DNA of 64,000 bases from an uncultured delta proteobacterium. GTDB taxonomy: Bacteria > Desulfobacterota > Binatia > UBA9968. Location of the stretch: the NCBI GenBank assembly GCA_963811315.1, contig CAWERH010000013.1, forward strand, positions 134,123 through 198,122. The letters run 5' to 3'. The first letter of the stretch is position 1. Every line of letters starts with the position of its first letter. Below are positions 4,088 to 40,444 of this stretch, in pieces. The notes below the pieces were generated by a model. That model searched no databases. It was not told the DNA's origin and saw nothing but the letters and a program-made list of their open reading frames with translations. A program made the translations under genes and the position numbers.

Positions 4088-5077
4088 TCAAGCTCTCAAT
4101 GCCGGAAGAACTTCTCGACCCAGCAGCTCGATTTGCTCGTACCAATCGGCGTAGCGAAACCGTAAATCGTAAACGATGTGGTCGGCACCGGCCGTTTCGT
4201 AGGCGCGGCTCTCGCCGACGATATCCGCCGGCGTGCCCGCCAAGACCAAACCGCGAATATCGTCCGGCGTATCAAAAACACCGCCGGGCGGCTTTACCCA
4301 AGTCGGAAACTTGTTTGCTTCGGAGATCAGAGCCTCGAAGTTGATTCTGCTGAGCGCATCCTGACGATCGCGAGCGACACTGGTGAATGGCATGACCGCA
4401 GCGCCAATCATCGGCTTGGCGGCTTTGGCGCAGAGCTCGCCGAGGTAAGATTTCAGTTTGCGAAAGGTCGCTAGCGTTGTGCGCGCCGGCATCCAACCGT
4501 CGCAATATTCCACGGCGCGCCGGCAAGCGGCCGGCGTGCCGCCGCCGTACCAGATGGGTATTGGTTTTACCGGCGTGGGTTTCAGTGCCACATCGGTAAA
4601 ATTGAAATACTCGTTCTTGAAGGTTATGCGCTCGCCGCTCCAGAGGCGGCGGCATATATCCACATTCGTCCTGACCAGTTCGGCGCGCGCGGCGATATCG
4701 GTCGGATAGCCCGCCGCTGCGAACTCATGAGGGAATCCGCCTAAGCCGATGCCCATGATGACCCGGCCCCCCGAGATGGTGCTCAAGCCGGCGAAAAGCT
4801 GCGCGAGATGAATTGGATGACGATGACAAATCGTCATTGACGTGCCGAGGGAGATCGTGCGAGTCGTCGCAGCGATCGCCGACAGGATTAATAAGCCCTC
4901 GATATGAGTGTTGTCGTTCCCCTCGATGCCGTGGGGCTCGAAAACCAAATGATCTCTCACCCAAACCGAATCGAAGCCAAGCGCCTCGGCTCTTCGGGCA
5001 CCGTCGAGACAATCGATGGCTGAGGCAAACTCACAAAAGTGCGGCAGCAATAAACCAAACTTGAGCGTGGTTGCCAT
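4088..5077 (-). CDS. LLM-class (luciferase-like) flavin/F420-dependent oxidoreductase
   Basis: MATTLKFGLLLPHF...GFDSVWVRDHL... typical LLM N-terminus and TIM-barrel length (329 aa). Confidence 0.85.
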   Translation of the reverse strand: MATTLKFGLLLPHFCEFASAIDCLDGARRAEALGFDSVWVRDHLVFEPHGIEGNDNTHIEGLLILSAIAATTRTISLGTSMTICHRHPIHLAQLFAGLSTISGGRVIMGIGLGGFPHEFAAAGYPTDIAARAELVRTNVDICRRLWSGERITFKNEYFNFTDVALKPTPVKPIPIWYGGGTPAACRRAVEYCDGWMPARTTLATFRKLKSYLGELCAKAAKPMIGAAVMPFTSVARDRQDALSRINFEALISEANKFPTWVKPPGGVFDTPDDIRGLVLAGTPADIVGESRAYETAGADHIVYDLRFRYADWYEQIELLGREVLPALRA

Positions 5078-5144
5078 GAAATCCCTGGTGCAATGAGCAA
5101 AGATGCTGGGTCACCTAGAAGCAAAGACTTGACTGAAAAGCGCA

Positions 5145-5672
5145 TTAAAACTGGACGAGGTATTCCTTGCCAGTGGCGCCCCTACAGCGACCGATGCCGC
5201 TCCCCGTATAGGATGAGCCGATCAAAAAACATTGCATGGTGGTGCGGCGGTCGCCCTGCAGATTTGCCGTCCAATAGAACAGAGGGCCGCTGACCGCGAC
5301 TCCGGGGCTCCCCGGTGGTCCAATCAATGGCTCTGCATAGGCGGTTTGATTAAACGCCGAGGAAGCGCCGAAGAAACCGACCAAACCACCGCCGTGTTGA
5401 GAGAGATCCGGCCCGTCCATGGCGATGGTGCCGATGCCAAAGGTTTTTTCGTAGCCATCAACAAACGTGCGCCGAGCCACGCGTGAAAACGTGCCGACCA
5501 GGATTTCCCCTTCCGTCCCGATAACCTGCATCAAGCCGTCGTCACCGCGAGCGTAACGCCAGCGGCCTTGCCATATTTCACCATCGCTGGAAACGAAACT
5601 GACCCGATTCGCGCAGCCGCAAACGCTGGCTAGCGAAAACAATAACGGGACGACAATAAAGAAATGTTTCAA
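5145..5672 (-). CDS. Hypothetical lipoprotein
   Basis: Signal peptide with lipobox MKHFFIVVPLLFSLASVCGC; Gly-rich 175 aa. Confidence 0.5.
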   Translation of the reverse strand: MKHFFIVVPLLFSLASVCGCANRVSFVSSDGEIWQGRWRYARGDDGLMQVIGTEGEILVGTFSRVARRTFVDGYEKTFGIGTIAMDGPDLSQHGGGLVGFFGASSAFNQTAYAEPLIGPPGSPGVAVSGPLFYWTANLQGDRRTTMQCFLIGSSYTGSGIGRCRGATGKEYLVQF

Positions 5673-6176
5673 GCCGAAGTTTCCTGCGTTGGACGCATGG
5701 GAATTTTAAACCATCCTGAGTGAACATACCAAGCTCACTCAAGGTTCATCACGGCGGAAACGGGCCGACGCCTTTTCTGAACAATTGCTCTAGGCCCGCT
5801 CGCCACTTGATCGCGGATAATGCATTGCGAAATCATTCGATCTGGCAACAATGACATCGGGCGAAGCGCACAGACAGTACACGCATCTTGACCTTAAGCG
5901 CGAGCGGACTCTTCTCAGCGAGCCAATGGCGAATTCGCCGACTTGCAGTCTGACACGATCCCACATGGGAGATCAGACCGTGCACTCCGCTTCCTTCGCC
6001 ACTATAGCTTGCAACAATACGTATTATAAATAATAGTTATATCTAAACTTCTAAGCTAACACTAGAGTAATTTCTCTGGCGGCGAAATGACCAAAATTGA
6101 GCCCCCCGGCAAACCGACCTTGGCGTCTTCCCGCCAGAGATTGATGCGCAAGTGTCCAGGTTTTATCTAATTTAGC

Positions 6177-6653
6177 TTATGAGTTTTTCCCATGTTGCTT
6201 CATAGCGGCTTCTGCCCGCTTATGAAGTTCCTCGGGCGAAAGGTCTTCTTTGTGGGTCGCAATCGACCACACATGGCCAAAGGGGTCTTCTACCGTCCCA
6301 GACCGATCACCGTAGAATTGGTCCTCCACGGGACGGAGCACCTTCGCGCCGGCCGCGACAGCCCGGTCGAAGCATGAATCCACGTCTCTCACATATAGAA
6401 CAAGACTTACGCCGGTTCCTCCAATCGACTGTGGGCTACGAAATCCCATATCCGGGAACTCGTCCGCCAACATGATCGCGGAACCATCGATTTCGATTTC
6501 CGCATGCCCAACGGTGCCGTTCGGCCCATCCATTCGCATGCGCTGCGAAGCGCCGAACACTTTCTTATAATAATCGATCGCGCGACCCGCCCCCTTTATG
6601 ATGAGATAAGGGGTCACGCTGTGATAGCCATCGGGAATCGGTTTTACTGCCAT
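6177..6653 (-). CDS. VOC family protein (glyoxalase/bleomycin-resistance fold, PhnB-like)
   Basis: MAVKPIPDGYHSVTPYLIIKGAGRAIDYYKKVFGA...; start ATG 6653 with GGAGGTG RBS; track ORF extends to 6701 upstream of the RBS. Confidence 0.85.
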   Translation of the reverse strand: MAVKPIPDGYHSVTPYLIIKGAGRAIDYYKKVFGASQRMRMDGPNGTVGHAEIEIDGSAIMLADEFPDMGFRSPQSIGGTGVSLVLYVRDVDSCFDRAVAAGAKVLRPVEDQFYGDRSGTVEDPFGHVWSIATHKEDLSPEELHKRAEAAMKQHGKNS

Positions 6654-6899
6654 GATTTCACCTCCTGGCTTGACGTTAACTCCGAAAAAAACGTGACACA
6701 ATAATCATCGTGTTAAAAAACAGTAACGACTGGGAGCAAGCTAAAAATTGGCAATCTTGTTGAGCTGGCGCCACGTCGCGCGCGCAAATTCTACTTCAAT
6801 ATTTCATTCAGCAACTTATCGGCGGGCCGGCGGTCGGAAAATTTCGGGTCGTCGCGCTCGCCGCGTCGACGATATCTCAAAGCCGATCCTGCGGGCTTG

Positions 6900-7330
6900 T
6901 GAGTGCATGGCGGCCACGTCTTCGACCACCGCGAAAGACAGAGTCTGTTGCCAAGGAATCATCGAAGCGCAGCGAGTCGGAACCGCCAGGGTCTTCGACA
7001 TACAGTTCGATCGCGCATCGCATGTGGGTCGCAAGAGTCTCCAGTCTGGCCGTAATGACATAACTTCCGTCGGTCCTGATGAGGCGCGCGATCTGAGCGA
7101 GCTGAATCGTGCCGGCGAAAAGACGTCAGTTTCTTCGGCATCGAGCGGAGCGCAGTTTGCCCTGCCACCATTTCGAGCCATCGATAACCTCCGGCAGCGA
7201 TAACATCGGCTTGACCGGATCGAGCAGCTTGCCGACGTGGAGCGTGTTGAAGGCGGTGCCTTTGCCGCCGGCGATGGTCGCGGCGAAGCTGGCGACAGTG
7301 AAACAAGGCAGATTCAGTGAGAAAGATAAA
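6900..7330 (-). other. Fragmented ORF pieces of unknown function (multiple frames)
   Basis: Three overlapping minus-strand ORF fragments (…DGSYVITARLETLATHMRCAIELYVEDPGG…, …FTVASFAATIAGGKGTAFNTLHVGKLL…) suggest a frame-shifted gene; no family recognised. Confidence 0.25.
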
Positions 7331-7345
7331 GCAGTTTCTCGTCTA

Positions 7346-8282
7346 TTAAACTTTAGTGAAGACTTCCTGCGCCATCCACTCCATCCGCTCGAACGTTTCA
7401 TTGATGCTCGGCTGGCGCACGTCGAAGATCATGGTATCGACTCCCGCATCGCGGTAGGCGCGGATGTCGGAGGCGATCTCTTCGGCGCCGCCCATGAAGC
7501 GGCGGCGCCGGCCCTCGATCTTTTTTTCCTTGTCGAAGAGCGAGCCTTTGAGGGCGACGCGAATTTGTTTTGGGTCGCGGCCGGCTTTTTGCGCGTACTC
7601 GGTCAGAGTGGCCATGTCTTTCTTGATGTGCTCGGGTTCGAGCGGGATCGTCGGCACGCCTCCGATCGGGTGCCAGCCGTCGCCCAACTGTCCGGCGCGC
7701 CGCAACGCTTGCTTGCTATGGCCGCCGATCCAGATGGGAATCGCCGGTTTTTGCACTGGCTTGGGAAGAAAAATAATATTGGAAAACTTGCAGTACTTAC
7801 CATTGAAGGAAGGATTGTCGCTAGTCCACAGCTCTCTGAAGGCTTGGATGTACTCGTCGGTCACTTTGCCGCGTTCTTCGTAGGGCGGCGCTTTTAGATT
7901 TTCAAACTCCTCTTTCATCCAACCGACACCCAAACCGGCGATCACCCTGCCGTTCGACAACACGTCGAGACTCGCGAGCATTTTAGCGGTGATGATCGGA
8001 TTGCGATACGGCGCGATCATCACACTGGTGATGAATTTGATTGTTTTGGTGGCGCCAGCAAGGAATCCCATGGTCGCCAACGTTTCAAGATGGTAACCAG
8101 TGCCCGGGTATTTGCCGTCGACGGTGTAGGGATAGGGCACGGAAATATCGCGCGGCACGATCACGTGATCGGCGATCGTGAGGCAATGCAGTCCCAGCGC
8201 TTCGGCGCGTTTGCGCGAAGCGCACCAAGTCGTCGGCCTTTACCGCCGCGCTCGACGCCGGCAGATGGAGTCCAAAATCCAT
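7346..8282 (-). CDS. LLM-class F420/flavin-dependent oxidoreductase, frame-shifted near 8205-8212
   Basis: N-terminus MDFGLHLPASSAAVKADDLVRFAQ (8282..) continues after a 1-nt shift as RAEALGLHCLTIADHVIVPRDISVPYPY... (frame of 7346..8164); shift at caaa run. Confidence 0.7.
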
Positions 8283-8288
8283 GGTGGT

Positions 8289-8862
8289 TTACCCTACTTG
8301 CGCAGATAAGATTTGCCGATCTTGCCGGAGCGCGATCGGTTCGCCGGTGCGGATCACGCCGTCGCTCAAGATCGCCGCCTTGAGACCGCTGCGATGTTCG
8401 AGAGCCTTGAAAATGGCCGGCAGCTTGGTGACTTTTACCAGGTGGCCACAGGGTTCGAACAAACGAATGCCGCGCATCAGGACTCCACCGACAGTGAATT
8501 CGTGACCGAGCAATTCGATCAACGGCACGCCCCGCGTCACGATATTGCGACGGGTCAGAACTCCGATCGAGTCCATAGACAGTTCCTTCGCCGCGAGTTG
8601 AAGGACTTCATCCTCGATCAGGCTCACGGCTTTGTCCGCGCGGTTCACGGCATTCCAGGACTCGCGAAAGAACCGATCGCCTTCCAAGCCGCGGTCGGCA
8701 AAAGCGCGCGCCTCCGGCACTGAGACCATCTCGCCCGCGGATTCCGGCGTAACAAAAATCGCCGCGACGCTGCCTTGCCAAGTCGCAGCTCTTCGGTTTG
8801 AAGCCGCGCCACAGCTCGAGCGGCATTTCCTCGGGCATGGGTCGAATTGCTTGTTGAGCCAT
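8289..8862 (-). CDS. MOSC domain protein (YiiM-like), frame-shifted
   Basis: C-terminal ORF has GLEGDRFF motif and MOSC-like beta-barrel region; N-terminal piece MAQQAIRPMPEEMPLELWRGFKP (start 8862, RBS GGGGAGAG) is in another frame. Confidence 0.55.
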
Positions 8863-8943
8863 ATTCTCTCCCCAAAACGACACCGGCCACTGATACTTCA
8901 GTGGCCGGTGGTTGAGCTGAAGCTGTATTTCGGACCGAGCGCT

Positions 8944-9426
8944 TTATCCAGCCGAGTCCGCAAAAAAGCGAGTGTCTTCGATCGGCGGCACCGTCTTGTT
9001 CTCTTCCGAGGAAGCGATCAGCGGCTTGCCATCGGGGCGCACGCGCATATCCTCACCGCCCTGGGCTTTCCCTTTGATGCCCGCGCCGACGCGGATCACG
9101 ACGAGATTTTCCGGGCCGGTATTGAGATAACGATAATAGGCGCCCTTGGGAATCATGACTCCCTGATGTTTTTCGACCTTGATCTCGCCGCCCTTTTCGT
9201 CGAATACGCTCATCTGGCCTTCGAGCACAATGAACGAATGGTCTTCATCGAGATGGCAGTGAATCTCGTTTTCGCCGCCCTCGTAGTTGATCTTGGTGTG
9301 AATCCACATGTTTTCGGTCTCGGCGACCAACTGCGTGATCCGGCCCTGCTTCATGTACGGGGTCCGTAGCGAAAACTTTTGCGTCTTCGGTTTCTCCGTC
9401 GGTTCTAATTTTCTTGCTGCGTTCAT
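8944..9426 (-). CDS. Cupin-domain protein
   Basis: MNAARKLEP...HCHLDEDHSFIVLEGQMSVFDEKGGEIKVEKHQGVMIPKGAYYRY; start ATG 9426 with AAGGAG RBS. Confidence 0.7.
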   Translation of the reverse strand: MNAARKLEPTEKPKTQKFSLRTPYMKQGRITQLVAETENMWIHTKINYEGGENEIHCHLDEDHSFIVLEGQMSVFDEKGGEIKVEKHQGVMIPKGAYYRYLNTGPENLVVIRVGAGIKGKAQGGEDMRVRPDGKPLIASSEENKTVPPIEDTRFFADSAG

Positions 9427-9454
9427 CGGAACTCCTTTCAAGGTGGTTGGTGAT

Positions 9455-10519
9455 TTAGTTATTAACGCCGTCAACCTTTAGGTGATAGAGATCGATCACG
9501 TTGCTGCGCACGACTTTGTCGATGACCGGCTTCGGTAGATGGCCGAGTTCATCGGCGATGACTTGGCGCGAGTGCGGCCAGGTCGAAGCTGCGTGCGGAT
9601 AATCGCTCGACCACATAAAATTATTCTCGCCAAACCAATCCATCATGCGCCCGCCGCGCGGGATCGCTGAAGAAGGTCGCAAAAACTTGGTCTTGTACGT
9701 ATTCGCTCGGCAACTTCTTCATGTACGGCAGCGGTGCTTTGGGGCTGTGGCGCACGAAATATTTGTCCCACTCGTGGCAGTAGAACGGAATCCAGCCCAC
9801 TTCATTTTCCACGTACACGAGTTTTAGTTTCGGATACTTTGCCAACGCGCCGCCGAAGACGAAATCAAATAAGCGTGTTCGCCGCGTCGGCGAGCTTCTG
9901 ATTCACGGTCATACGGTAAGTATCCAAGCCTTTGCGGTCAAACCGGCTGTAGTTGAATCCGGTAAGGATGTGGACGTTGACCGGCATATCGAGTTCCGAC
10001 GCCGCTTCCCAGAACGGATTGTAATAGTCGCTGGTAAACGGCAAATGGTCGGGCGGCACCTGCCAGATCATGCAGCCGATCATGCCCTGTTTCTTGCAGC
10101 GTTCGAGCTCTTTAATGGCGTTCGGGATGTTGTACATCGAGATCATCGGGATGCCGAACAGGCGGCCCGGCGAGGATTGGCAATAATCGATCATCCAATC
10201 GTTGGCGATCTGGAAGCAGGATTCTTGCAGATCGGCGTCTTCCAGCGCGTAGAGCCGAAGGCCATGGGTCGCATACAAAACTTCGGCGCTCACGCCATCG
10301 ACCGCCATTTCATCGAGGCGCGCCTTGGGATCGTGTCCACCCGGTTTCTCACCCGCCGTGTTGCGCGGCGGAAACGTCGGAAATTTGGCCTTTAAGACTC
10401 GGCGTCAGGTTAGCTTCCCAAAGATCTACCGGCTCCATGATATGGGAGTCGGACGAAATAATTTTATCTTTCCCCAGTACTTGCTCCGCGGTACGTTTGA
10501 CCGCAGCGGCTGTGCTCAT
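9455..10519 (-). CDS. Amidohydrolase-2 family protein (ACMSD/LigW-like metal-dependent hydrolase/decarboxylase), at least 3 frameshifts
   Basis: Start ATG 10519 (GGAGG RBS) MSTAAAVKRTAEQVLGKDKIISSDSHIMEPVDLWE; then MAVDGVSAEVLYATHG..., ...AKYPKLKLVYVENEVGWIPFY..., ...MWSSDYPHAAS... in three frames. Confidence 0.7.
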
Positions 10520-10651: not shown

Positions 10652-11485
10652 ATGAGCCTGTTTAATCGCCGGTTTTGGCCACATCTGATCGTCTTTTTAC
10701 TGTTGCCCGGCTGGTCGATCGCCGGCGAAGCGCAGAACGCCTTTAACGACGGCATCAAGTTCTACAAAGCCGCAAAGTATAAGGACGCCGTGGGCGCCTT
10801 TAGCCGCGCCATCAAGGCGTCGCCAAAAGCCGACGAGGCTTACAACAATCGCGGCCTGGCCTATTTCAAGCTTGGCCAAACCGACAACGCCGTCAAAGAC
10901 TACGACGAGGCTTTGCGGCTTAACGGTAAATTAACCGACGCTTATTTCAATCGCGGCAATGCTTATTTCGCCCAAAAACAGTACGACCGCGCGCTCAAAG
11001 ACTATGACGAAGTGATCAAAGCCGATCCCAAAATGCCGCGCGCTTACCGTCAGCGCGGCCTCACTCACAATGCGCTGGGCCAGTTCGAAAACGCCGTGGC
11101 GGATTTCAATCAAGCGCAAAAACTCGATCCCAAGGACGCGGAAATTTATTACAGCCGCGGCCTCGCCTACCGCCGCCTCGGTAAGAGCGAGCAGGCCGTG
11201 CAAGACTATTCCGAGGCGATCAAGCTCGATCCGAAAAATACCGAGGCCTTTAACAACCGCGCCAACGCCTATTCGCTGCTCGGCAAATACGACGAGGCCG
11301 TCAAAGACTATGACGCGGCGCTGAAGCTCGACCCCAATAGCGCCAAGATTTACGCCAATCGCGGGGTCATTCGGACGCGCCAGGGAAAGACCGATGAAGC
11401 ACAGAAAGATTTCAGAAAAGCTCTGGAGTTAGATCCTAAGCTTAAAGACAGCGTCGAGCCTTTTCTGACGCCGCAAAAAAAATGA
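10652..11485 (+). CDS. Secreted tetratricopeptide-repeat protein
   Basis: Signal peptide MSLFNRRFWPHLIVFLLLPGWSIAG; about 7 TPR units (AYxNRGxAYxxLGQxDxAxxDYxxAL). Confidence 0.9.
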   Translation: MSLFNRRFWPHLIVFLLLPGWSIAGEAQNAFNDGIKFYKAAKYKDAVGAFSRAIKASPKADEAYNNRGLAYFKLGQTDNAVKDYDEALRLNGKLTDAYFNRGNAYFAQKQYDRALKDYDEVIKADPKMPRAYRQRGLTHNALGQFENAVADFNQAQKLDPKDAEIYYSRGLAYRRLGKSEQAVQDYSEAIKLDPKNTEAFNNRANAYSLLGKYDEAVKDYDAALKLDPNSAKIYANRGVIRTRQGKTDEAQKDFRKALELDPKLKDSVEPFLTPQKK

Positions 11486-12555
11486 ACGCCTGGACGCAAA
11501 GATATTTTTTCACGGCGATCGCCGCCGGACTATTGGCTGTTTCGGCGCCCGTTTGGCCGGCTCAGATAGACGAACCGTTAAAGGCTGCGCTGGAACTGCA
11601 CGACGCCGGCAAAGTCAGAGAGGCATTGGCTGAATACGACAAAGTCATCAAAGCTCACCCGAAGCTCGCCGAAGCCTATTTCAATCGCGGCAACGCCTAC
11701 TACGATCTTGGGCAAAACCAACAAGCCATCAAGGATTATAGCGAAGCGATTCGCTTGAATCCGAAGGACGCCGAAGCCTATTTCAACCGCGCCAACTCTT
11801 ACCGGCGGCTCAAACAGGTGGACGCGGCGTTGAAGGATTATACTGCGGCCATCAAGCTCAACCCGGAAGACGTCCGCAGCTATATGAACCGCGGCACCAT
11901 CCATTTCGACGCTAAACGCTACGAAGCCGCTGTCAAAGACTTCACCGAAGCGATCAGGATCGACCCCAGCGATGCCCAGACCTACTACAACCGCGGCAAT
12001 AGTTATCTGGCTTTGAGCGATGAAGACGCCGCAATCAAAGATTACGATGACGCGTTGGAGCGCGATCCGAAGTTGTCCGAAGCCTACTACAACCGCGGCA
12101 TCGCCTATGTCGACGCGCAAAAATATGAGGCTGCGATCCGCGATTTCGACCAGGTCATCAAGCTCAATGCGAAATCATCCGACGCGTTTTATAATCGCGG
12201 ACTCGCCAAGATGAAGGCCGGCAAGCACGAAGACGCCATCGAAGATTATAGCGAAGCGATGCGCATCAATCCTAAAGACGCCGAAGCGCCGTTCAATCGA
12301 GGTCTCGCCTACCTGCGCATCGACAAGTACGACTACGCCGCGCGCGACTTCAGCGAAGTCATCGGTCTCCAGCCAAAAAATGCCGACGCCTACGTTTACC
12401 GCGGCATCATCCGCATTTATCAAAATAAGGACAAGGAAGCCGACGGCGATTTCCAGCGCGCATTCCAAATCAATCCTGCCCTCAAGAAAAAGCTCCAGCC
12501 GATCATCGACGACGCCAAAGCCAAAGCAAAGACGCAGCAGCTCAAAGAAAAATAA
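11482..12555 (+). CDS. Secreted tetratricopeptide-repeat protein (paralog)
   Basis: ATGA overlap with upstream TPR gene; signal peptide; about 9 TPR units. Confidence 0.9.
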   Translation: MNAWTQRYFFTAIAAGLLAVSAPVWPAQIDEPLKAALELHDAGKVREALAEYDKVIKAHPKLAEAYFNRGNAYYDLGQNQQAIKDYSEAIRLNPKDAEAYFNRANSYRRLKQVDAALKDYTAAIKLNPEDVRSYMNRGTIHFDAKRYEAAVKDFTEAIRIDPSDAQTYYNRGNSYLALSDEDAAIKDYDDALERDPKLSEAYYNRGIAYVDAQKYEAAIRDFDQVIKLNAKSSDAFYNRGLAKMKAGKHEDAIEDYSEAMRINPKDAEAPFNRGLAYLRIDKYDYAARDFSEVIGLQPKNADAYVYRGIIRIYQNKDKEADGDFQRAFQINPALKKKLQPIIDDAKAKAKTQQLKEK

Positions 12556-12606
12556 GTTTATTGAGCCGGATTTTGCGAGTACATAAAACAGCGAGACTGA
12601 TCCATC

Positions 12607-16777: not shown

Positions 16778-17903
16778 ATGCGGGTTATCGATGCCGACGG
16801 TCACGTCGAGGAAAATCTCGATACTTTTAGCGACAAGTATCTCGATCCAGCGTTTCGCGCGTTGCGTCCGCGCGTGACGGCGGTGGACGGTCTCGTTTAC
16901 TGGGTCATCGACGAGCAACTTTATCCACGGCGCGTTGGGCCCGGCTGCCATAATCTTGGTACGCCGACAAACTTCAACGGCCAGCTCGCGGCGCACACCC
17001 AAGGCAAAACCGATAGCATCGGCAGCATGGAACTGAGCGATCTCACCGCCCGCCTCACGGCAATGGACGAGGAAGACATCGCCATTCAGGTGATCTATAC
17101 CACGCTGTTTCTGGCCTATCCGTTAACGAAGAACGTCGGCCTCGGCAGCGCGATCACGACATCCTACAACCGCTGGATGGGCGACCGCCTTTCCGGCCAC
17201 CCGCGCATCAAATGGTCGGCGGTGGTCAATCTGGACGACGTCGCCGCGGCGGTCGGACAAGTGCACGAAGCCAAGAAACTCGGCGCGGTGTCGGTCATGG
17301 TGCTCGGAACCGCCGGCGACGACATGCTCGATCATCCCAGGCTCTTTCCTTTTTACCAGGCGCTGTGTGAAGAAAATCTCGCGCTCGGCGTCCATGTCGG
17401 CTGGTCCTGTCCGTCGATCAATAATCTCTACTCGCACATCTACCCGTCCGGCGTCATCGCGTTTCACGTGCCGCTGCTCATGGCTTTCACCGCGTTGATC
17501 AGCGGCGGAGTGTTGGATCGCTTCCCGGATCTTCGTCATCGTTTTTCTCGAAGCCGGTTGCCAATGGGTGCCGTTCATTCTCGAACGCGTGCATCACCGC
17601 TACAAAAACCAGGGTTCGACGTTGAGGAAGTTTTTGCCCCAGACCGCGCCGATTCAGAAACTGCCGGTGATGGAATACATCAAACGCGGCAATATCTTTT
17701 TCAGCACCGAAGTCGAAGACGAAATTTTGCCCAATGTGCTCAAGCTCGCCGGTGAGGGCCAGGTCATTTTCGGCAGCGATATGCCGCACGGCGACCGCGA
17801 GCGTTGCGCCGCGCGCATGCTCCAAGAGCGCACGGATATCAGCGAGTCGGCAAAAGCGAGTATTCTCGATACGAATCCTGCGCGGCTTTACGGCATTGCA
17901 TAA
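16778..17903 (+). CDS. Amidohydrolase-2 family protein, frame-shifted near 17550
   Basis: MRVIDADGHVEENLD... (GGAGG RBS, ATG 16778); C-terminus ...QVIFGSDMPHGD... in 17568..17903 frame. Confidence 0.7.
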
Positions 17904-18101
17904 GCGAGACCCGCGCTTCGCAGCTTCCATGCGCTACTGAATCAACCGCAGAGGCAAGACGCGAGTTCGTCATGCCGGTGAAAACCGGCATCCAGGTCCC
18001 CGTTCCGGTGGACGTCAAAGACGCCTGGATTCGGCTTCCGCCGGAATGACGAATGAGCTCGAAACTCAGCACTTTGGACCGAATCGTCCGCTTTATGCGA
18101 C

Positions 18102-19189
18102 GCCGTAAAGATGGCGGGCGTTTTCGCATAAGATCTTTTCGACGATATGAGGCGGCACGTCTTCCCGGGCGCGCAGGTTCTTGACGAACTCCGGTTCCTT
18201 CGACGGATCATTATGACCGTAATCCGAGCCGATGACGATGATGATCCTCGCCGATATAGGTGAGCAGATGCGGCAATTCTTCGTCGGCCTCGCAGGCGAT
18301 CCAGAACCGATAGTCGCGAAACAAATCCTGCGGATTCTTATTCTTTAAATCCGCGCGCACCGACCGCCGCAGCACGTGAAAGATGTAGGGCACCCAGCTC
18401 GCGGCCGCTTCGATGAAGCCGAAACGGAGCTTGGGAAACTGCTCGGGAATACGATTGGCGACCAGATCCCGGAATGCGATCACCGGCAGAACGCGATTGT
18501 GGGCAAAGGTGTGATTGCGCTCGACGTCGAACGGCTGCATCAGGTAGCGGCTCCCCGAACCGGTATGGATGCAGATCGTTAAATCGAGCTTTTCGGCCAA
18601 GCGCGTAGATCGGCAAGAAATACGGGTTGTCCAGAGTCAGATTGCCTTCCATGCCGCGAAAGAAACACTCCCACCGCGCCCTGCTCTTTCGCCCATTTCA
18701 TTTCCACCAACGAGGCCTCTATATCCCGCAGCGGCAAGATCGCGACCCATTTGAGCCGCTCCGCCGCCTTGGCGCAGGCATCGGCGATGAAGCGGTTATA
18801 GGCGCGGCACAGGGCGGTCTCGAGCTTCGGATCGTCGGTGAGATAGACCAGAAACAGCGTCGGATAGATCACCTGAATCTCCACACCGAGCTTGTCCATG
18901 TCTTTTAATCGCGCTAACGGATCGGTCAGTTCCCGCACGCCGAGATGAATATCGCCCCGCCCCGATTCTTTTTTTGCGCCGATGGCGTGATCAAGCTGTA
19001 ACTCGCCTTCCCCGCCGGCTTGGGAAAAATTTCGCCGTCGATGAGCCAAAACGCATTGCGCTCTTTGTACCAGGTGTCGTCGGGGATCTTGGCCAGCACC
19101 GGACGGCGCGGATACATTTCTTTGTCGATATAGCTCCACATCGCTTCCGATTCGGCGATGTGCGTGTCCGCGTCTAAAACTCCGGGCAT
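18102..19189 (-). CDS. Amidohydrolase-2 family protein, at least 3 frameshifts
   Basis: MPGVLDADTHIAESE... start ATG 19189; pieces in 18926..19204, 18579..19139, 18211..18600 and a final ...IIVIGSDYGHNDPS...LYGVA* ending TAA 18102-18104. Confidence 0.65.
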
Positions 19190-19207
19190 GATTTCGATCC
19201 TCAAACT

Positions 19208-19243: not shown

Positions 19244-19276
19244 CCGTCGGAAGGAACGGCCATAGTTCGCGATCGG

Positions 19277-20272
19277 TTAGCGCTTAAACTTGTCGATGAA
19301 ACCGCTCTTCTTGATTTCGTCGAGGACGCTCGAGTCCAGGAGTCGCAGACTTTCGGGCGTCTGACCTTTGGCTTTCGGGGTGGTGGCCGCCACCTGAGAC
19401 AGAATAAACTCCAAGCCCTTGCGGTCCGGCATCACCATCACGTCGCTGCCGTGTTTCGCCAGATAATACTCGTAGCTGATGTTGGCGTCTTCGCCGTCGA
19501 CACGAATATATTTCTTGATGAGCTGCAGGCCCAGCGCCTTATCGTTCTTGACCGCGAAATAGCCTTCGATGATCGCCTTCATGGCGTTGACGATCTTGCC
19601 GCGGTTCGCCTCCAAGTAACTGCGCCGGACAATGAAACAGTTCTGCGGAAACGGCACGCCGCTCTCCGCCAGGTCGATCAATGAATTCATCTTGTGCTCG
19701 CGGATGCCCATGGTCGTAAGGGGCTCGGCCAAAAGCGTGGCATGAATCGTGCCGTTCATCAGCGCGGCATAACGGGTCATATTGCCGCCGACCTGGACAA
19801 TGGTCACGTCTTTTGGGTTCAGCCCGAGTTTTTCCAACGCCACTTGCGTCGCGTAGTCCGATGCCGAGCCGAAGCGGCTGATCGCGATGCGTCTGCCCTT
19901 CAAATCTTCCGGGCGTTTGATCTCGGGACGAACAAGAAGCTTATTGGGGATAAAATTCATGCCGCCGGCGATAATCGTCGTATCCGCGCCTTGAAGATTC
20001 GCCGTGATCGCCAGCGCACCGGTGGTGAACACGATCTGCAGCTCGTTCGCCAGCAAGGCCTGCATCGCCGGCGTGCCGCTTTCCAGCGCTAGATATTCGC
20101 CATCGAGTCCGTACTTTTGAAAGATCTTTCTCTCGTAGGCCGCCCAAACGACGGCATGAACCGCCGTCGAAAATCCGCCGCTGGCGACGCGAAATTTTTC
20201 CTGCGCGGCGGTTCGATCCACGTTGGCCGCTAACAAGCTCACCGCAACCAACAGACAGCAAAATAGTTTCAA
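19277..20272 (-). CDS. NMT1/THI5-like ABC-type periplasmic substrate-binding protein
   Basis: Signal peptide MKLFCCLLVAVSLLAANVDRTAA; SsuA/NMT1-like fold sequence, 331 aa. Confidence 0.85.
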   Translation of the reverse strand: MKLFCCLLVAVSLLAANVDRTAAQEKFRVASGGFSTAVHAVVWAAYERKIFQKYGLDGEYLALESGTPAMQALLANELQIVFTTGALAITANLQGADTTIIAGGMNFIPNKLLVRPEIKRPEDLKGRRIAISRFGSASDYATQVALEKLGLNPKDVTIVQVGGNMTRYAALMNGTIHATLLAEPLTTMGIREHKMNSLIDLAESGVPFPQNCFIVRRSYLEANRGKIVNAMKAIIEGYFAVKNDKALGLQLIKKYIRVDGEDANISYEYYLAKHGSDVMVMPDRKGLEFILSQVAATTPKAKGQTPESLRLLDSSVLDEIKKSGFIDKFKR

Positions 20273-20295
20273 GCTTCCTCCGATGCCATTGCCCG

Positions 20296-21588
20296 TTAAA
20301 TAAGTTTATTTGCGCAGGGCGCTACAGGCCTTTTTTCGAACGGTCGGCTACCTGACTCTGCCGGTGGGTGAAGCAGGGTTTGAGCCTGCTCGCGCAAACG
20401 ATTGAAGCGGGCCAGATCCTCTCCGACCAGCCGCCGAGTCTTCGGTATGCGCAGATCGAGAAAGTTAATCTTCGTGCCGCCGTTAAGAAACTCGAAATGC
20501 AGATGCGGACCGGTGGCGTGGCCGGTTTGACCGACATAGCCAATGATGTCACCCGGATCGACGCTCTGACCCCGGCGCAGATTTTCCGCAAAACGGGAAA
20601 AATGAGCATAGCGAGAGGTATAATTTCCGGAATGGCGAATATCCACGACGTTGCCGTAACCGTTGCGCCATCCGACAAACTCGACTCGCCCTCGCCCTAT
20701 CGCTACCACCGGTGTTCCTGCCGGCGCGGCATAGTCGATCGCCATATGCTGCCGCACGGTGCGGAAAATCGGATGTAGCCGGTTGCGATTGAAGGGCGAC
20801 GAGATCCTTGCATAACTCAACGGTGCGCGTAAAAACGACCGGCGCATCGATTCGCCGTTGAGACTATAGTAATCGCCGCTTCCATCCTTGCTCGTGAAGT
20901 AAAGCGCGTTAAAGACATCTCTCCCAGCTTCTATCTCGGCGGCGATAATTCTCCCGGGCGCGCGACGGCCGTCCGAATAGCGGACTTCTTCCACCATCGC
21001 GCTGAAATCGTCGCCGCGCTGAAAGTCGGAGAAAAAGTCGACGTCATATTCAAAGATTTTCGCCAGATCGAGAATCTGCTGCGGCGACAGTCCCGCCTCG
21101 GCGCCACTTTCATACAAGCTGCCTTTGATCGTACCGCGAACGACTCGAGTCTCCCGCATTGCGGGAATATCGTGGCGCTCCGCCGACCAGCCATTTTCGG
21201 TGGCTTTGACGCGAATCAAATTATCGTCGACGACAAATTCCACTCCTCGAACCGTGCGATCTCCAGGATCGAGAACGACGTGAACATTATCTCCGGGACG
21301 AATCTTTCTGGGATTGACGAATGGCCGAACTTTTTCGATCAGCGCGCGCGCCGACGGCGGAGCCACACCAAAACGTTTGAGCACGGTGCCTAGCGTGTCA
21401 CCACTGCGCACCTGCACGCCGATCCGCGATTGCGACGTCAGACTTTCCGCCACTGCGTTTAGCGCCGCTGGTTCAGGTTGACGGAATGGAGGCTCTTCAT
21501 ACGGCGCTCTCAGCAATGGGGCGCATAGCAGCAATACGCGTGGTGGCAATGACAACGCCGGCACAACGACGCAGGAAATTGCCGACAA
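20296..21588 (-). CDS. M23 family metallopeptidase (peptidoglycan DD-endopeptidase-like) with N-terminal LysM/OapA-like region
   Basis: HxxxD...AIDYAAPAGTPVVAIGRGRV...GQTGHATGPHLHFEF M23 signature. Confidence 0.85.
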   Translation of the reverse strand: MSAISCVVVPALSLPPRVLLLCAPLLRAPYEEPPFRQPEPAALNAVAESLTSQSRIGVQVRSGDTLGTVLKRFGVAPPSARALIEKVRPFVNPRKIRPGDNVHVVLDPGDRTVRGVEFVVDDNLIRVKATENGWSAERHDIPAMRETRVVRGTIKGSLYESGAEAGLSPQQILDLAKIFEYDVDFFSDFQRGDDFSAMVEEVRYSDGRRAPGRIIAAEIEAGRDVFNALYFTSKDGSGDYYSLNGESMRRSFLRAPLSYARISSPFNRNRLHPIFRTVRQHMAIDYAAPAGTPVVAIGRGRVEFVGWRNGYGNVVDIRHSGNYTSRYAHFSRFAENLRRGQSVDPGDIIGYVGQTGHATGPHLHFEFLNGGTKINFLDLRIPKTRRLVGEDLARFNRLREQAQTLLHPPAESGSRPFEKRPVAPCANKLI

Positions 21589-21944: not shown

Positions 21945-23042
21945 ATGCTCTTCTTGACCAACGAACACATTCAGCAAGTCCTCAACATGGAAACCTGCAT
22001 CGCCGCCATGGAGGATGCGTACGGCGAGATTAACGAGCAACGCGCCGGTTATCGCCCGCGCATCGATTTCTACGTGCCGGAGGAGCCGCATTATTATCGC
22101 TGGGGCACGATGGAGGGCGCGTCACGCAAGCTCGGTGTCTTCGCCATTCGAATGAAATCCGACATGCTGGCCTGGGAAGAGCAGGACGGTTTTATGGTCG
22201 AAGACAAATATTGCATGGAACGCGGCCGTTACTGCGGGCTGATTTTTTTACTGAGCACGCGCAACGCGCAACCGCTTGCGCTGATGAATGACGGCTATTT
22301 GCAGCATATGCGGGTCGGCGCTTGCGCCGGCTTGGGGACCAAATACCTCGCCCGAGAAGATTCGACGGTGCTCGCGATGATCGGCTCCGGCGGCATGGCA
22401 CGGACTTACGCCGAAGCCATCAAACTCGTCCGGCCCATCGAAGTCATGCGCGTGTTCAGCCCGACCAAAAATAATCGCGAGGCTTTCGCCGCCGAGATGA
22501 CCGACAAACTCGATATCGAGGTGATCGCCGTCGACTCTCCGGAGAAAGCGCTCAGGGACGCCGATATCGTCTCGCTGACGACGGATTCTCTCGTGCCCGT
22601 GATCAAGGCGGACTGGCTCGAGCCGGGAATGCACATTAATAACGTGCGCAACAACGAGGCCGGCCCCGACGTGCTCGCTCGCGCCGATGTCCGTGCCCGC
22701 CTCGGCACGTCGACGCTGTTCGCCGACCGTAATGCTCCGGAAGTCGTCACCGGCAGCGACGGCATGTTCGGTTACATCGCCGGCAATGCCGCCGAAAAGA
22801 GGAAGATCCCGAAATCACCACATATGGAGATCGACAATCCGAATATCACGACGATCCCCGACATCATGGCCGGACGCCGGCGCGGCCGGATCAACGACCG
22901 GCAAATCACTTTTCTCAACAATCAAGGAACCCAGGGATTGCAATTTGCCGCCGTGGGCGCCGCAGCGTACAACCTGGCAAAAGCCAAAGGGCTGGGGCAC
23001 CCGCTGCCGCTCGAATGGTTTACGCAGAATATACGAGATTAG
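21945..23042 (+). CDS. Ornithine cyclodeaminase / mu-crystallin family protein
   Basis: MLFLTNEHIQQVLNMETCIAAMEDAY...; Rossmann MIGSGGMAR; AAGGAG RBS 8 nt before ATG 21945. Confidence 0.85.
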   Translation: MLFLTNEHIQQVLNMETCIAAMEDAYGEINEQRAGYRPRIDFYVPEEPHYYRWGTMEGASRKLGVFAIRMKSDMLAWEEQDGFMVEDKYCMERGRYCGLIFLLSTRNAQPLALMNDGYLQHMRVGACAGLGTKYLAREDSTVLAMIGSGGMARTYAEAIKLVRPIEVMRVFSPTKNNREAFAAEMTDKLDIEVIAVDSPEKALRDADIVSLTTDSLVPVIKADWLEPGMHINNVRNNEAGPDVLARADVRARLGTSTLFADRNAPEVVTGSDGMFGYIAGNAAEKRKIPKSPHMEIDNPNITTIPDIMAGRRRGRINDRQITFLNNQGTQGLQFAAVGAAAYNLAKAKGLGHPLPLEWFTQNIRD

Positions 23043-23050
23043 GACAAATT

Positions 23051-23138
23051 GGAGTGATGGAGTAATGGAATGTTGGAGCATTGGGTAAGAAGCGATTCGG
23101 CCTCACCCATTACTCCACCACTCCATTACTCCAACTCC
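23051..23138. repeat. Imperfect inverted repeat / hairpin (TGGAGTAATGGA vs TCCATTACTCCA x2)
   Basis: 23058-23069 pairs perfectly with 23122-23133 and 11/12 with 23106-23117; between OCD stop and VOC start. Confidence 0.7.
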
Positions 23139-23167
23139 TTCGAAGTTAAACTAACAAGGAGTTTCAC

Positions 23168-23962
23168 ATGTCCACCCTTCGCTACATCGCTTATCTCGCA
23201 GAAGAGCCGGCGGAACTCGTCGACTTTTACCATCGCTTCCTCGGAACCGAGGAGCTGGGCCGTTCGCCCGAGGGCGATATCACGATCACCGACGGTTTTT
23301 ACAATCTCACTTTCTTCAAGAAGCGCCCCGCCCTCGGCGAGATGCAGATGGACACCGGGTTGCACCATATCGGCTTGCAAGTCGACAATCTCGAAGAGGT
23401 GAAGGGACGCTTCCTGAAATTGAATCCGCGCGGCATGATCATTCAGGAACCGGGCGACCTCCAGCATGGCGAAATTCGCCTGCATGATCCCGAGTGCCGT
23501 CCGGTCTCCGTCTCAACCTCCACCTTCGGCGTCCCGGCGAGCAAAGAGAAGCAGTTCCCACGCGTCCGCCATATCGCCTACAATGCGCTAGATCCTGAAA
23601 TGATGTTACTCTTCTACACGCAGGTGTTTGGCCTGCGCGAAATTCCATCGAGTTATCTGCGCCGCCAACAAGGGCGCGGCAATCGGTTCTGCGCCGATGG
23701 CAAAACCAACCTGGCGATCCATCCGTTCTACAACAAAATCGAAGGCCACGAAGCCAAATACGGCATCAATCACATCGGCTTCCTCACCAACTGCATGCAA
23801 GCCACCATGGCCGAGCTCAGCAGCATTCTCAAAATCGTGCCGCGCCCGGCAAATCGTCCCTACTCAGAATTCCGCTTCCGCGATATCGAAGGGAATGCCT
23901 TAGACCTCTCGCAGACCAAAGGCTGGGAAGTTGACGTCGATAAGTGGGAAACCGCAGCATGA
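23168..23962 (+). CDS. Two-domain VOC (glyoxalase/extradiol-dioxygenase fold) protein
   Basis: MSTLRYIAYLAEEPAELVDFYHRFLG... and second module HIAYNALDPEMMLLFYTQVFGL...; AAGGAG RBS. Confidence 0.8.
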   Translation: MSTLRYIAYLAEEPAELVDFYHRFLGTEELGRSPEGDITITDGFYNLTFFKKRPALGEMQMDTGLHHIGLQVDNLEEVKGRFLKLNPRGMIIQEPGDLQHGEIRLHDPECRPVSVSTSTFGVPASKEKQFPRVRHIAYNALDPEMMLLFYTQVFGLREIPSSYLRRQQGRGNRFCADGKTNLAIHPFYNKIEGHEAKYGINHIGFLTNCMQATMAELSSILKIVPRPANRPYSEFRFRDIEGNALDLSQTKGWEVDVDKWETAA

Positions 23963-25026
23963 GAAAACCTCGGGCCGTGGTGTATTGGAGTGATGGAGCA
24001 ACGGGCAAGGGAAAAGATGATTGCGCGTTGCCTGTTGTCAGTTTGCTCTTTCTGATTGCCGTATTGCTTGGTTCAACGCCGACCCTTTTTGCTGCTGCGA
24101 CGCTGGAGAAACTCACCATCGGCTGGAGCGCCATCGCCGGCTCGCAAGCACCGTTTTGGATCACCAAGGAAGCCGCGCTTTTCGAGAAGAACGGCCTGGA
24201 CGTGACAATGATTTATGTCGACGGAGGATCCAAAGCGACCCAAGCGATGATGTCGGGCGATATGCCGATCGCCCAGGTCGGCGGCAACGCGCCGGTAGTG
24301 GCACGGCTGCGCGGCGCCGATATAACGCTGATTGCTGGACTGCTGAATGTGCTGGCCTACAGCATGGTCGTCTCGCCGGAGATCAAGAAACCGGAAGATC
24401 TCAGGGGCAAGAGACTTTCCGTCAGCCGCTTTGGCTCGAACTCGGACTACGCGACTCGCAAAATTCTACTTAAGTGGGGACTCCGGCCCGACATCGACGT
24501 GGCCGTATTGCAGATTCCCGGCGGCCAACCCGCTCGGCTCGCCGCGATCCAGTCGAAACAGGTCCATGGCATGGTCGCGCAACCGCCGGTGACAAATCTT
24601 GCGCGCAAATTCAACTTAGGAATTATCGCCGAGCCAGCAGATTTCGGCGGTGCCTATCCGACGACACCGGTGGCGGCGCGCATGTCGTTTCTCCGTGAAA
24701 AGCGCGACCTGGCGCGCAAGTTTACCCGAGCATTGCTGGAGGGCATTTACGTTTACAAGACGCAGAAGGATTTCAGTAAGAAAGTGATCGCTAAGTACGT
24801 CAAGACCGACGATAACGACGCACTGGAAGACAGCTACCGGTTTTTCTCACCCCTGGTTCCGCAGAAACCCTACCCTTCGCTCGAAGCCGTCAAGGAAGCC
24901 CTCGCCGAGCTCGGCGAAAAAGACCCAAAGGTCCGATCGGCAAAACCCGAAGATTTCGTCGATGGCAGCCTAATCAGAGAATTCGACGACAACGGCTTTA
25001 TCGACGGGCTCTATAAGCAGCGCTAA
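23959..25026 (+). CDS. NMT1/THI5-like ABC-type periplasmic substrate-binding protein
   Basis: Hydrophobic signal LPVVSLLFLIAVLLGSTPTLFAAA; start uncertain (ATG 23959, GTG 23977/23980); NMT1-like body. Confidence 0.8.
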   Translation: MRKPRAVVYWSDGATGKGKDDCALPVVSLLFLIAVLLGSTPTLFAAATLEKLTIGWSAIAGSQAPFWITKEAALFEKNGLDVTMIYVDGGSKATQAMMSGDMPIAQVGGNAPVVARLRGADITLIAGLLNVLAYSMVVSPEIKKPEDLRGKRLSVSRFGSNSDYATRKILLKWGLRPDIDVAVLQIPGGQPARLAAIQSKQVHGMVAQPPVTNLARKFNLGIIAEPADFGGAYPTTPVAARMSFLREKRDLARKFTRALLEGIYVYKTQKDFSKKVIAKYVKTDDNDALEDSYRFFSPLVPQKPYPSLEAVKEALAELGEKDPKVRSAKPEDFVDGSLIREFDDNGFIDGLYKQR

Positions 25027-40436: not shown

Positions 40437-40444
40437 CGTCTTCG

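Follow-up and report, generated by a model that had tools for sequence, protein, structure and literature searches.

Amidohydrolase-like genes and orphan binding proteins in a probable mosaic of oxidative modules from an uncultured Binatia bacterium

A 64,000-nucleotide stretch of DNA from an uncultured delta proteobacterium (Binatia; contig CAWERH010000013.1, positions 134,123 to 198,122), hereafter called the window, carries five genes of the "amidohydrolase-2" family among genes for oxidoreductases and secreted substrate-binding proteins (SBPs). This arrangement raises the question of what chemistry the five proteins, here named AMH1 to AMH5, perform and whether the genes around them constitute one pathway. 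An initial annotation of this DNA had placed the proteins in the ACMSD/LigW/gamma-resorcylate-decarboxylase family and had proposed that they arose by paralog expansion within an aromatic or heterocyclic acid catabolic reservoir. Pfam scans, run on essentially every window open reading frame (ORF), agree with the families that had been named for two luciferase-like (LLM) oxidoreductases, two VOC proteins, and the MOSC, cupin, Rieske, and OCD proteins. All five amidohydrolase-2 genes likewise belong to family PF04909, on the basis of Pfam matches for four of them (AMH4 and AMH5 through orthologs or homologs) and of tblastn similarity plus a PDB match for AMH1.

As judged from sequence, the five proteins are most likely neither hydrolases nor decarboxylases but hydroxylases that activate O2 at a dinuclear Fe/Mn site, within or next to the superfamily of amidohydrolase-related dinuclear oxygenases (AROs). 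The region most likely is a mosaic, being neither a single pathway nor the product of a recent duplication burst. To the whole explanation that we favor, namely a conserved mosaic of oxidative modules in which ARO-like enzymes are accompanied by SBPs that use a shared translocator and in which the indels that break genes are artifacts, we assign a probability of about 0.6.

Metal-ligand residues of the PF04909 proteins

AROs use O2 to hydroxylate C-H bonds and contain Fe2, Mn/Fe, or Mn2 cofactors, and the hallmarks used here were drawn from the papers that describe them (PMC10811679, PMC13154177, PMC7782822). The superfamily was defined in a 2026 paper by an N-terminal D-x-H motif together with a C-terminal D-x-P-H-x-[DE] motif. 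The ligands of AibH2 are Asp25, His27, His211, Glu265, Asp337, and His340, and Asp342 is located in the second sphere.

Alignment of the window proteins places Asp, His, His, Glu, Asp, and His at the ARO ligand columns in all five. The motifs read DSH ... VHI ... VENE ... DYPHAA in AMH1, DAH ... VHI ... IEAS ... DYGHTD in AMH2, DGH ... VHV ... LEAG ... DMPHGD in AMH3, DTH ... IHT ... IEAA ... DYGHND in AMH4, and DGH ... THG ... IECG ... DYPHERD in AMH5. The first motif of each series aligns with the DVH of the solved ARO 8sm7, and the mid-barrel His and bridging Glu of all five proteins align with the SIHIG and IAEAG segments of PtmU3. Decarboxylases of the ACMSD, LigW, gamma-resorcylate, and IDCase types share with these proteins the fold, the overall length, the mid-barrel His, and the C-terminal Asp. 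In contrast, at the ARO-specific columns they carry H-x-H or E-x-H, His where AROs have Glu, and Phe where AROs have His, as in human ACMSD (H-x-H, His, His, and Asp-x-Pro-Phe, which reads DYPF). This combination is found in none of the five window proteins.

Comparisons with solved structures give the same picture for four of the proteins. The best PDB match is PtmU3 for AMH1 (7e-42, with DitZ at 1e-28), for AMH5 (6e-33, then 8sm9 at 6e-27, 8sm7 over its full length, and SfbO), for AMH3 (9e-18, then 8sm9, 8sm8, and 4dzi), and, by a narrow margin over ACMSD, for AMH4. No NCBIfam equivalog, including those for decarboxylases and hydratases, matches any of the repaired PF04909 proteins or the protein encoded at 37240.

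The metal ligands, and with them the unusual C-terminal motifs, are retained by orthologs (DYGHTD of AMH2 in 15 of 16, the AMH4 variant in five of five, and DYPHAA of AMH1 in nine of nine). A search of a representative database with the intact C-terminal 211 residues of AMH2 yielded 476 clusters at E<=1e-10, and the counts given here cover 66 full-length sequences in the best 150 of these clusters. Each of the six ligands is kept in 62-64 of the 66 representatives, the D-x-H motif in 63-64, and the seventh Asp in 60. The position that is Pro in the published motif is Gly in 44, Ser in 11, Thr in five, Ala in two, and Pro in none. When a profile of 59 sequences from this clade was compared with solved structures, PtmU3 scored 129.7 bits over its full length and ACMSD scored 83.9; 4dzi (99.4), SfbO (90.3), 8sm9 (88.6), and DitZ (85.5) were intermediate.

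Taken as sequences, the five proteins fall into three groups. AMH3 is a predicted ARO by the published criteria. AMH2 and AMH4 are predicted members of a sister clade that is ARO-like but fails the published motif filter, and AMH1 and AMH5 are putative PtmU3-like proteins with atypical seventh positions. An assignment to the ACMSD/LigW type is not supported because these proteins have D-x-H, Glu for the ACMSD His, and His for the ACMSD Phe, and because PtmU3 and the AROs prevail in the structure comparison. We infer metal content, oxygenase activity, and substrates from these similarities. A small Rieske ferredoxin (<250 aa) in the transcription unit of an ARO, which marks the Mn-type "L-ARO" subset, was not found among the window ORFs, where the sole Rieske protein is a 386-aa alpha subunit. 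This is not disqualifying since diiron "H-AROs" usually lack such a partner (PMC13154177).

Conserved modules and their binding proteins

When one genome per species was searched with the window Rieske protein, 76 loci (L-numbered) were recovered. The closest, L001, has 95% identity, and most of the next 40 loci are Binatia or "delta proteobacterium" soil metagenome-assembled genomes (MAGs); AMH5 homologs also carry Binatia or Deltaproteobacteria MAG names. The segment from 7.3 to 25 kb is collinear in at least 10 Binatia loci at 72-92% nucleotide identity (blastn). Identity among the five PF04909 paralogs is only 22-35%, whereas each has its own orthologs at 75-97% identity in other Binatia, and therefore the expansion is not recent, as the term paralog expansion might have suggested. 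These paralogs are of ancient origin, and strong purifying selection acts on every one of them. The three clustered genes (AMH2 to AMH4), previously described as alternating in orientation, are in fact arranged +, +, -.

Gene content within the block varies. AMH3 is absent in L006, and AMH3, AMH4, and the SBP are absent in L007. The closest annotated relative, L079 (ERZ25039520 contig_14843, 170210-191205), has extra SBP and OCD genes, with five NMT1 SBP, four PF04909, and three OCD genes in 21 kb. It holds an SBP-ARO-SBP-OCD-OCD-SBP run not found in the window, and therefore modules are gained and lost within the conserved block. The OCD-VOC-SBP module is kept in L079, L080, and L083.

Three NMT1-type proteins of the window (346-1365, 19277-20272, and 23944-25026) have signal peptides, recognized by inspection as hydrophobic N-termini. 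Their nearest named relatives are SsuA and TauA, at scores below the cut-offs of the TIGR01728 and TauA models (73 bits on TIGR01728 for SBP 19277). Four secreted NMT1-like SBPs had been reported, and three of these stand. The fourth, encoded at 37240-38199, is an enzyme-type PBP-fold protein rather than an SBP, and is predicted to be cytoplasmic, because it lacks a signal peptide and matches 4,5-dihydroxyphthalate decarboxylase (9jp7, E=1.7e-36, residues 1-318) over its full length. Between an SDR gene and this PhtD-like gene, a 61-codon remnant at 36996-37178(+) is 31% identical to the C-terminus of an NMT1 SBP and probably is a true gene relic. The 3' end of another SBP gene, at 9-98(+), is cut off by the start of the window.

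Pfam scans of the 64 kb revealed no specific transcription factor of the LysR, IclR, MarR, or TetR type, no ABC permease, and no importer ATPase, in agreement with the earlier observation that regulators and permeases are missing. The companion claim that no ATPase gene accompanies any SBP is correct for importer ATPases but must be amended, since an ABC-F ATPase gene (1684-3597) adjoins the first SBP gene. Proteins of the ABC-F family are soluble translation factors, not transporter subunits. Similarly, no NitT/TauT permease or ATPase gene (BPD_transp_1, or ABC_tran of that family) lies within 10 kb on either side of the orthologous SBP gene in L079, L080, and L083. Three annotated relatives thus show the SBP in the orphan state as well.

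In 824 kb of Binatia loci there are 11 places where a PF04909 gene is preceded directly, on its own strand, by an SBP or PBP-fold gene, and these represent at least four independent kinds of pair. The pair of SBP 19277 and AMH4 is present in six genomes (L001, L005, L011, L079, L080, and L083), and the pair of the PhtD-like protein and AMH5 is kept in L007 and L079. A pair resembling SBP 23944 and AMH5 occurs twice in L077, and an SBP109-like gene is paired with, and possibly fused to, an AMH1-like gene in L013. At L013:13415-15592(+), one stop-free frame of 725 codons encodes both a signal-peptide-bearing SBP and a PF04909 domain (DSH ... DYPHGG). Either this is a real SBP-ARO fusion or a stop codon was lost in a long-read MAG.

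The repaired Rieske protein of 386 aa has the C-x-H...C-x-x-H cluster motif (CSH...CCYH) and, in NWLQAEENLMDALHTFWLH, the catalytic D-x2-H-x4-H iron motif, which reads EENLMDALHTFWLH. Its best PDB matches, 7fhr (4e-47) and 7fjl (1e-42), are of the phthalate 4,5-dioxygenase type, and the window contains no FNR-type or ferredoxin-reductase gene. The Rieske ortholog adjoins the AMH2 ortholog in about 15 of 19 close loci. For more distant Binatia homologs (∼72% identity), a different, canonical ARO gene (DIPHGD or DIPHAD) is directly downstream in 13 of 19 loci, and no ARO gene lies next to non-Binatia Rieske homologs. Because adjacency is kept with two different ARO lineages, and only in Binatia, this pattern points to a functional link within Binatia.

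The most likely explanation for these arrangements is that the segments at 7.3-25 kb and 36-42 kb constitute a conserved chromosomal neighborhood of small oxidative modules that would be transcribed separately, with unrelated genes interleaved. The putative modules are AMH1, cupin, MOSC, and an F420-type LLM protein (module A); the phthalate-type Rieske oxygenase, the divergently oriented AMH2, and then AMH3 (module C); a secreted SBP followed by AMH4 (module D); OCD, VOC, and then a secreted SBP (module E); and the 4,5-dihydroxyphthalate-decarboxylase-like protein followed by AMH5 (module F). Each secreted SBP would capture a small anionic organic substrate in the periplasm and pass it to a shared NitT/TauT-type permease and ATPase encoded elsewhere. 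The co-transcribed cytoplasmic ARO may then carry out the first hydroxylation, such that an SBP and the ARO encoded downstream act on the same compound. One guess for the substrates is organosulfonates, because the SBPs have affinity to SsuA and TauA and sulfonate activity has been reported for SfbO. Our other guess is substituted aromatic acids, because a phthalate-type Rieske oxygenase, a PhtD-like protein, and UbiD are present.

In this respect the proposed catabolic reservoir survives in part. The window does hold an oxidative or catabolic gene set with orphan SBPs and no local regulator, but probably not one that operates through PF04909 decarboxylases. A link to aromatic acids gains some support from the Rieske alpha subunit, the 4,5-dihydroxyphthalate-decarboxylase homolog, UbiD, and an arylmalonate-decarboxylase-like protein.

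Frameshifts and competing explanations

The ORFs of the window had been read as whole genes, and frameshifts were overlooked. When the window was compared with its own proteins by tblastn and with the genes of relatives, four of the five PF04909 genes and the genes for the Rieske protein, LLM2, and the GHKL ATPase were each found to be split over two to four frames by 1-nt indels. A column-by-column comparison with relatives counts ∼11 single-base insertions versus two to three deletions between 8.2 and 19.0 kb, and short homopolymers hold only some of the indels. Insertions of 1 nt are located near 8212 in LLM2, at ∼9662, 9874, and 10393 in AMH1, at ∼14510 in the Rieske gene, at ∼15930 and ∼16009 in AMH2, and at ∼17537 in AMH3. 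AMH4 has three insertions and one deletion (18240, 18602, 18666, and 18972), and the GHKL gene has a frameshift at ∼12949 and another near its 3' end.

These frameshifts are sequencing or assembly errors, not marks of pseudogenes, because housekeeping genes are broken alike, dN/dS is low, insertions outnumber deletions, and the genes of relatives are intact. Among the housekeeping genes, Lhr is distributed over three ORFs; LepA, SucC (with ATP-grasp_2 and Ligase_CoA in overlapping frames), and a PNP_UDP_1 (purine-nucleoside-phosphorylase-family) gene over two each; RlmN is in several pieces; and Mdh, UGDH (ugd), PfkB, and two epimerases are truncated or mis-joined. With indels removed, dN/dS against the closest ortholog is 0.02-0.08 for broken genes and 0.02-0.16 for intact neighbors, and the broken genes have in-frame stops only where the shifts cause them. 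Relatives have single intact ORFs (PF04909 proteins of 353-398 aa, Rieske of 385-444, GHKL of 526-530, and LLM2 of 311-312), and AMH3 is 93-97% identical to its intact ortholog in L001. The indels are patchy, with at least 13 in 7.3-19.2 kb, none detected in 19.2-45.6 kb, and at least 11 in 45.6-64 kb, whereas a uniform rate would give ∼12 in the clean 26 kb. This distribution suggests that polishing or coverage was uneven, or that the assembly is a hybrid.

Several observations weigh against the explanation that we favor. The motif D-x-P-H-x-[DE] is strictly present in AMH3 only (DMPHGD). AMH2 (DYGHTD) and AMH4 (DYGHND) have Gly for Pro, the final acid of AMH5 (DYPHERD) is displaced, and AMH1 (DYPHAA) lacks this seventh acidic residue, as does the mononuclear, non-catalytic AibH1 (PMC7782822). 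As single sequences, AMH2 matches ACMSD and PtmU3 about equally (2.6e-10 versus 8e-10), and the same is true of AMH4 (1.6e-12 for PtmU3, with ACMSD about equal). The window, annotation gaps included, has no gene for a partner protein of the ferredoxin, Rieske ferredoxin, or reductase kind. The region is not one pathway because TPR, GHKL, and M23 genes are interleaved, and no substrate can be named from the window genes. In addition, the excess of PF04909-like ORFs in Binatia-type loci (56 in 824 kb, versus one in 627 kb of non-Binatia loci) is a biased figure because the loci counted were selected around related genes. Some of these features would fit proteins that are mononuclear, non-oxidative decarboxylases or hydratases of the ACMSD/LigW/gamma-resorcylate type, feeding aromatic or heterocyclic acids centrally. 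The common PF04909 fold, the near-equal ACMSD matches, the AibH1-like end of AMH1, and the presence nearby of a phthalate-dioxygenase-like Rieske protein, a 4,5-dihydroxyphthalate-decarboxylase homolog, and UbiD are all consistent with such a role. However, the five proteins uniformly carry D-x-H and never H-x-H or E-x-H, they have Glu for the ACMSD His and His for the Phe of D-Y-P-F, the clade profile favors PtmU3 over ACMSD by 46 bits, and no decarboxylase or hydratase equivalog is matched, which makes this an unlikely alternative. Membership of the ARO-like genes in a natural-product biosynthetic cluster, as for PtmU3, is extremely improbable. Although PtmU3 is the closest solved relative, ∼10% of AROs are in biosynthetic gene clusters (PMC13154177), and O-methyltransferase and glycosyltransferase genes lie at 29-31 kb, the genes are divided among several small operons with uptake-type SBPs. 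The candidate was rejected because core biosynthetic genes (polyketide synthase, nonribosomal peptide synthetase, terpene synthase, or other) are absent from the 64 kb.

The part of our explanation that concerns uptake also has a competitor, in which the secreted NMT1-type proteins serve in the periplasm as sensors, or as enzyme-like proteins of the PBP fold, and need no ABC translocator. We find this doubtful. It would account for the absence of permease and ATPase genes here and near the SBP in three relatives, for the matches to TIGR01728 and TauA that remain below cut-off, and for the use of the same fold by a cytoplasmic enzyme homolog in the same window. Sec-type signal peptides argue for the conventional role, as does the fact that the best named relatives are SsuA and TauA binding proteins. 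Moreover, it is well established that one translocator can be shared by several SBPs, as HisJ and ArgT share HisQMP. Real pseudogenes, in which case the region would be a decaying store of redundant paralogs, are very unlikely. The 13-14 frame-breaking indels in 12 kb are concentrated on paralogous enzyme genes, they are absent from 19.2-45.6 kb as far as detected, and an SBP relic exists at 36996-37178, all of which could be read as decay. However, lepA, lhr, sucC, mdh, ugd, rlmN, and the purine-nucleoside-phosphorylase-family gene are split too, the dN/dS values are 0.02-0.08 with stops arising only from the shifts, and all relatives have intact genes. The excess of insertions is likewise opposite to the deletional bias that characterizes gene decay in bacteria. 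The method lesson is that patchy assembly indels can mimic pseudogenization of a paralog family, and that housekeeping genes are the control that resolves the matter.

Relation to known systems and other window features

The window proteins resemble known AROs (PtmU3, AibH2, SfbO, and DitZ) in their PF04909 TIM barrel; in D-x-H, mid-barrel His, Glu, and D-x-x-H motifs common to all five; in having PtmU3 as best solved relative; and, like most diiron H-AROs, in having no Rieske ferredoxin gene alongside. They differ in the C-terminal motif, which is canonical in AMH3 only, has Gly, Ser, or Thr for Pro in the AMH2/AMH4 clade, and has its last acid missing in AMH1 and displaced in AMH5. In place of a small Rieske ferredoxin, they have as genomic partner either a full-size Rieske oxygenase or a secreted SBP. 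An SsuA/TauA-family SBP gene beside an oxygenase gene, with LLM-class enzymes in the region, is reminiscent of ssuEADCB and tauABCD. In contrast to those operons, the window has no SsuBC or TauBC, the oxygenase partner is ARO-like instead of SsuD or TauD, the SBPs score below SsuA/TauA cut-offs, and the LLM proteins fall in or at the border of the F420-type TIGR03619 group and not with SsuD. The repaired LLM2 protein scores 251.2 bits on TIGR03619 (cut-off 166.9), which makes it a predicted F420-dependent LLM enzyme, and LLM1, at 165.9 bits, lies just below the same cut-off.

The phthalate 4,5-dioxygenase pathway (oph/pht; 7fhr, 7fjl, 9jp7) has counterparts in the window in a homolog of the alpha-only Rieske oxygenase, a homolog of 4,5-dihydroxyphthalate decarboxylase, and an SDR, but the window homologs are 22 kb apart in different modules, have no reductase gene, and are similar at the family level only. 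Bordetella "Bug" (TctC-family) proteins are likewise numerous secreted orphan SBPs whose genes lie among metabolic genes without membrane components. These belong to the tripartite tricarboxylate family and to another phylum, whereas the window SBPs are of the NMT1/SsuA ABC type and genes of this type recur in pairs with a single enzyme family.

The ARO superfamily is itself known, having been defined recently, and orphan SBPs and enzyme-family expansions are familiar in oligotrophic soil and marine lineages. What appears to be new, modestly, is the Pro-less ARO-like clade, the systematic pairing of SBP and ARO genes, and the abundance of AROs in Binatia. Judging from the conserved D-x-G/S/T-H-x-D clade, the D-x-P-H-x-[DE] filter may miss members of the superfamily, which would then be larger than currently estimated. 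We advance only tentatively the broader proposal that Binatia possess a lineage-specific ARO-like set, including a sizeable, unrecognized Pro-less clade with D-[YF]-[GST]-H-x-D, that is hard-wired one-to-one to orphan SsuA/TauA-type SBPs. To our knowledge, natural substrates are unknown for nearly the whole ARO superfamily. If the SBP-ARO pairs are true modules for uptake plus hydroxylation of organosulfonates or similar recalcitrant small anions, then SBP ligands would offer a handle on ARO substrates.

Proteins labeled "amidohydrolase" in Binatia, and probably in many other soil MAGs, likely are hydroxylases that act on C-H bonds with O2. Such a relabeling changes the reading of oxidative and catabolic capacity in a globally distributed uncultured phylum. 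A survey of Binatota discusses alkB, CYP153, ladA, and CuMMO, and a term search of it gave no match for Rieske, luciferase-like, F420, sulfonate, or substrate-binding proteins (PMC8262859). A literature keyword search combining Binatia and amidohydrolase gave no match.

The window has a G+C content of 54-63% and is densely packed with genes (ORF listing and composition). Principal features are compiled in Table 1.

Table 1. Coordinates of features in the window
Feature	Position	Strand	Basis or remark
Secreted NMT1-type SBP, orphan	346-1365	+	Pfam; N-terminal signal sequence by inspection
ABC-F ATPase, adjoins first SBP	1684-3597	-	Two ABC_tran domains, Xtn, and CTD
LLM1, luciferase-like oxidoreductase, intact, 329 aa	4088-5077	-	PF00296, E=3e-51
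Small single-domain VOC/glyoxalase-fold protein	6177-6701	-	PF00903, E=8e-15
LLM2, LLM-class oxidoreductase (TIGR03619), last gene of AMH1-cupin-MOSC-LLM operon	7349-8282	-	PF00296
MOSC-domain protein	8292-8858	-	PF03473; orthologs in L001, L003, L004, L006, L007
Cupin_2 protein	8947-9474	-	PF07883; orthologs 90-94% identical
AMH1, PtmU3-like PF04909 protein	9458-10519	-	tblastn similarity to AMH5; PDB match (PtmU3)
Two tandem secreted TPR-repeat proteins	10652-12555	+	TPR Pfam families; 102-nt repeat units
GHKL/HATPase_c_3 ATPase	12607-14192	+	PF13589 and PF02518 on N-terminal piece
Phthalate-family Rieske oxygenase alpha subunit, 386 aa once repaired	14224-15382	-	PF00355
AMH2, ARO-like, D-x-G-H-x-D clade, divergent from Rieske gene	15578-16662	+	PF04909 (Pfam)
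AMH3, canonical ARO signature	16778-17903	+	PF04909 (Pfam)
AMH4, ARO-like, D-x-G-H-x-D clade, directly downstream of SBP 19277	18096-19199	-	PF04909
Secreted NMT1/SsuA-TauA-type SBP, orphan	19277-20272	-	PF09084 and PF13379; signal peptide by inspection
M23 peptidase, cell-wall type	20296-21588	-	PF01551, PF19425
OCD/mu-crystallin family dehydrogenase, first in OCD-VOC-SBP module	21945-23042	+	PF02423
Intercistronic hairpin of GGAGU/ACUCC octamer repeats	23044-23138	+	Kept in relatives
Two-domain VOC protein	23168-23962	+	PF00903
Secreted NMT1-type SBP, orphan	23944-25026	+	PF09084; signal peptide by inspection
Cytoplasmic PBP-fold protein (predicted), directly upstream of AMH5	37240-38199	+	PDB 9jp7; weak NMT1 match
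AMH5, intact ARO-like PF04909 protein	38318-39412	+	PF04909 on homologs; PDB PtmU3

A second patch of catabolic appearance at 36-45 kb comprises the SDR gene, the gene at 37240-38199, AMH5, and genes for an arylmalonate-decarboxylase-like protein, UbiD, and a molybdenum hydroxylase large subunit. The arylmalonate-decarboxylase-like (Asp/Glu racemase superfamily) and UbiD-family genes, at 39610-41914(-), are convergent with AMH5, and a gene for the prenyltransferase UbiX was not seen in the 64 kb. The molybdenum hydroxylase large subunit gene (752 aa, 43236-45494(-)) has no adjoining genes for FAD or 2Fe-2S subunits. At L077:15982-19247, a large subunit gene for a protein also of 752 aa abuts an NMT1 SBP gene.

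The remainder of the window is mostly housekeeping in nature and includes genes for ABC-F, CarD, Lon, Hsp20, PGM, Lhr, LepA, signal peptidase, UDP-sugar enzymes, RlmN, Ndk, SucCD, and Mdh. The TPR-TPR-GHKL trio (HATPase_c_3, ∼528 aa) at 10652-14192(+) is found amid the oxidative block in at least eight Binatia MAGs and looks unrelated to catabolism. Scans of the window for tRNAs and Rfam families gave no match, and scans for promoters and terminators gave fewer sites than in shuffled controls and were not used. A repeat search of the window recovered only TPR units, paralog echoes, and the intercistronic hairpin, and no ends of mobile elements.

The intercistronic hairpin, of ∼90 nt, is located between the OCD stop codon and the VOC start codon. 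It is built of four to five octamer repeats TGGAGTNA, which contain a Shine-Dalgarno-like GGAG, and of the complement TNACTCCA. The minimum free energy of the RNA is -45.4 kcal/mol (z = -6.8 versus shuffles), and no Rfam family matches it. A hairpin is present at the same junction in four relatives (L005:∼1925-2020, L007:∼5540-5660, L080:∼7140-7250, and L009:∼20-140), with compensatory changes at three of 23 pairs among five sequences only. A half-copy at 23984-24004 immediately precedes the signal-peptide segment of SBP 23944. The hairpin may be a translational or processing element. Finally, the cupin-MOSC gap of the AMH1 operon contains a perfect 13-bp stem with a 4-nt loop at 8881-8910(-), which reads CACCGGCCACTGA AGTA TCAGTGGCCGGTG.

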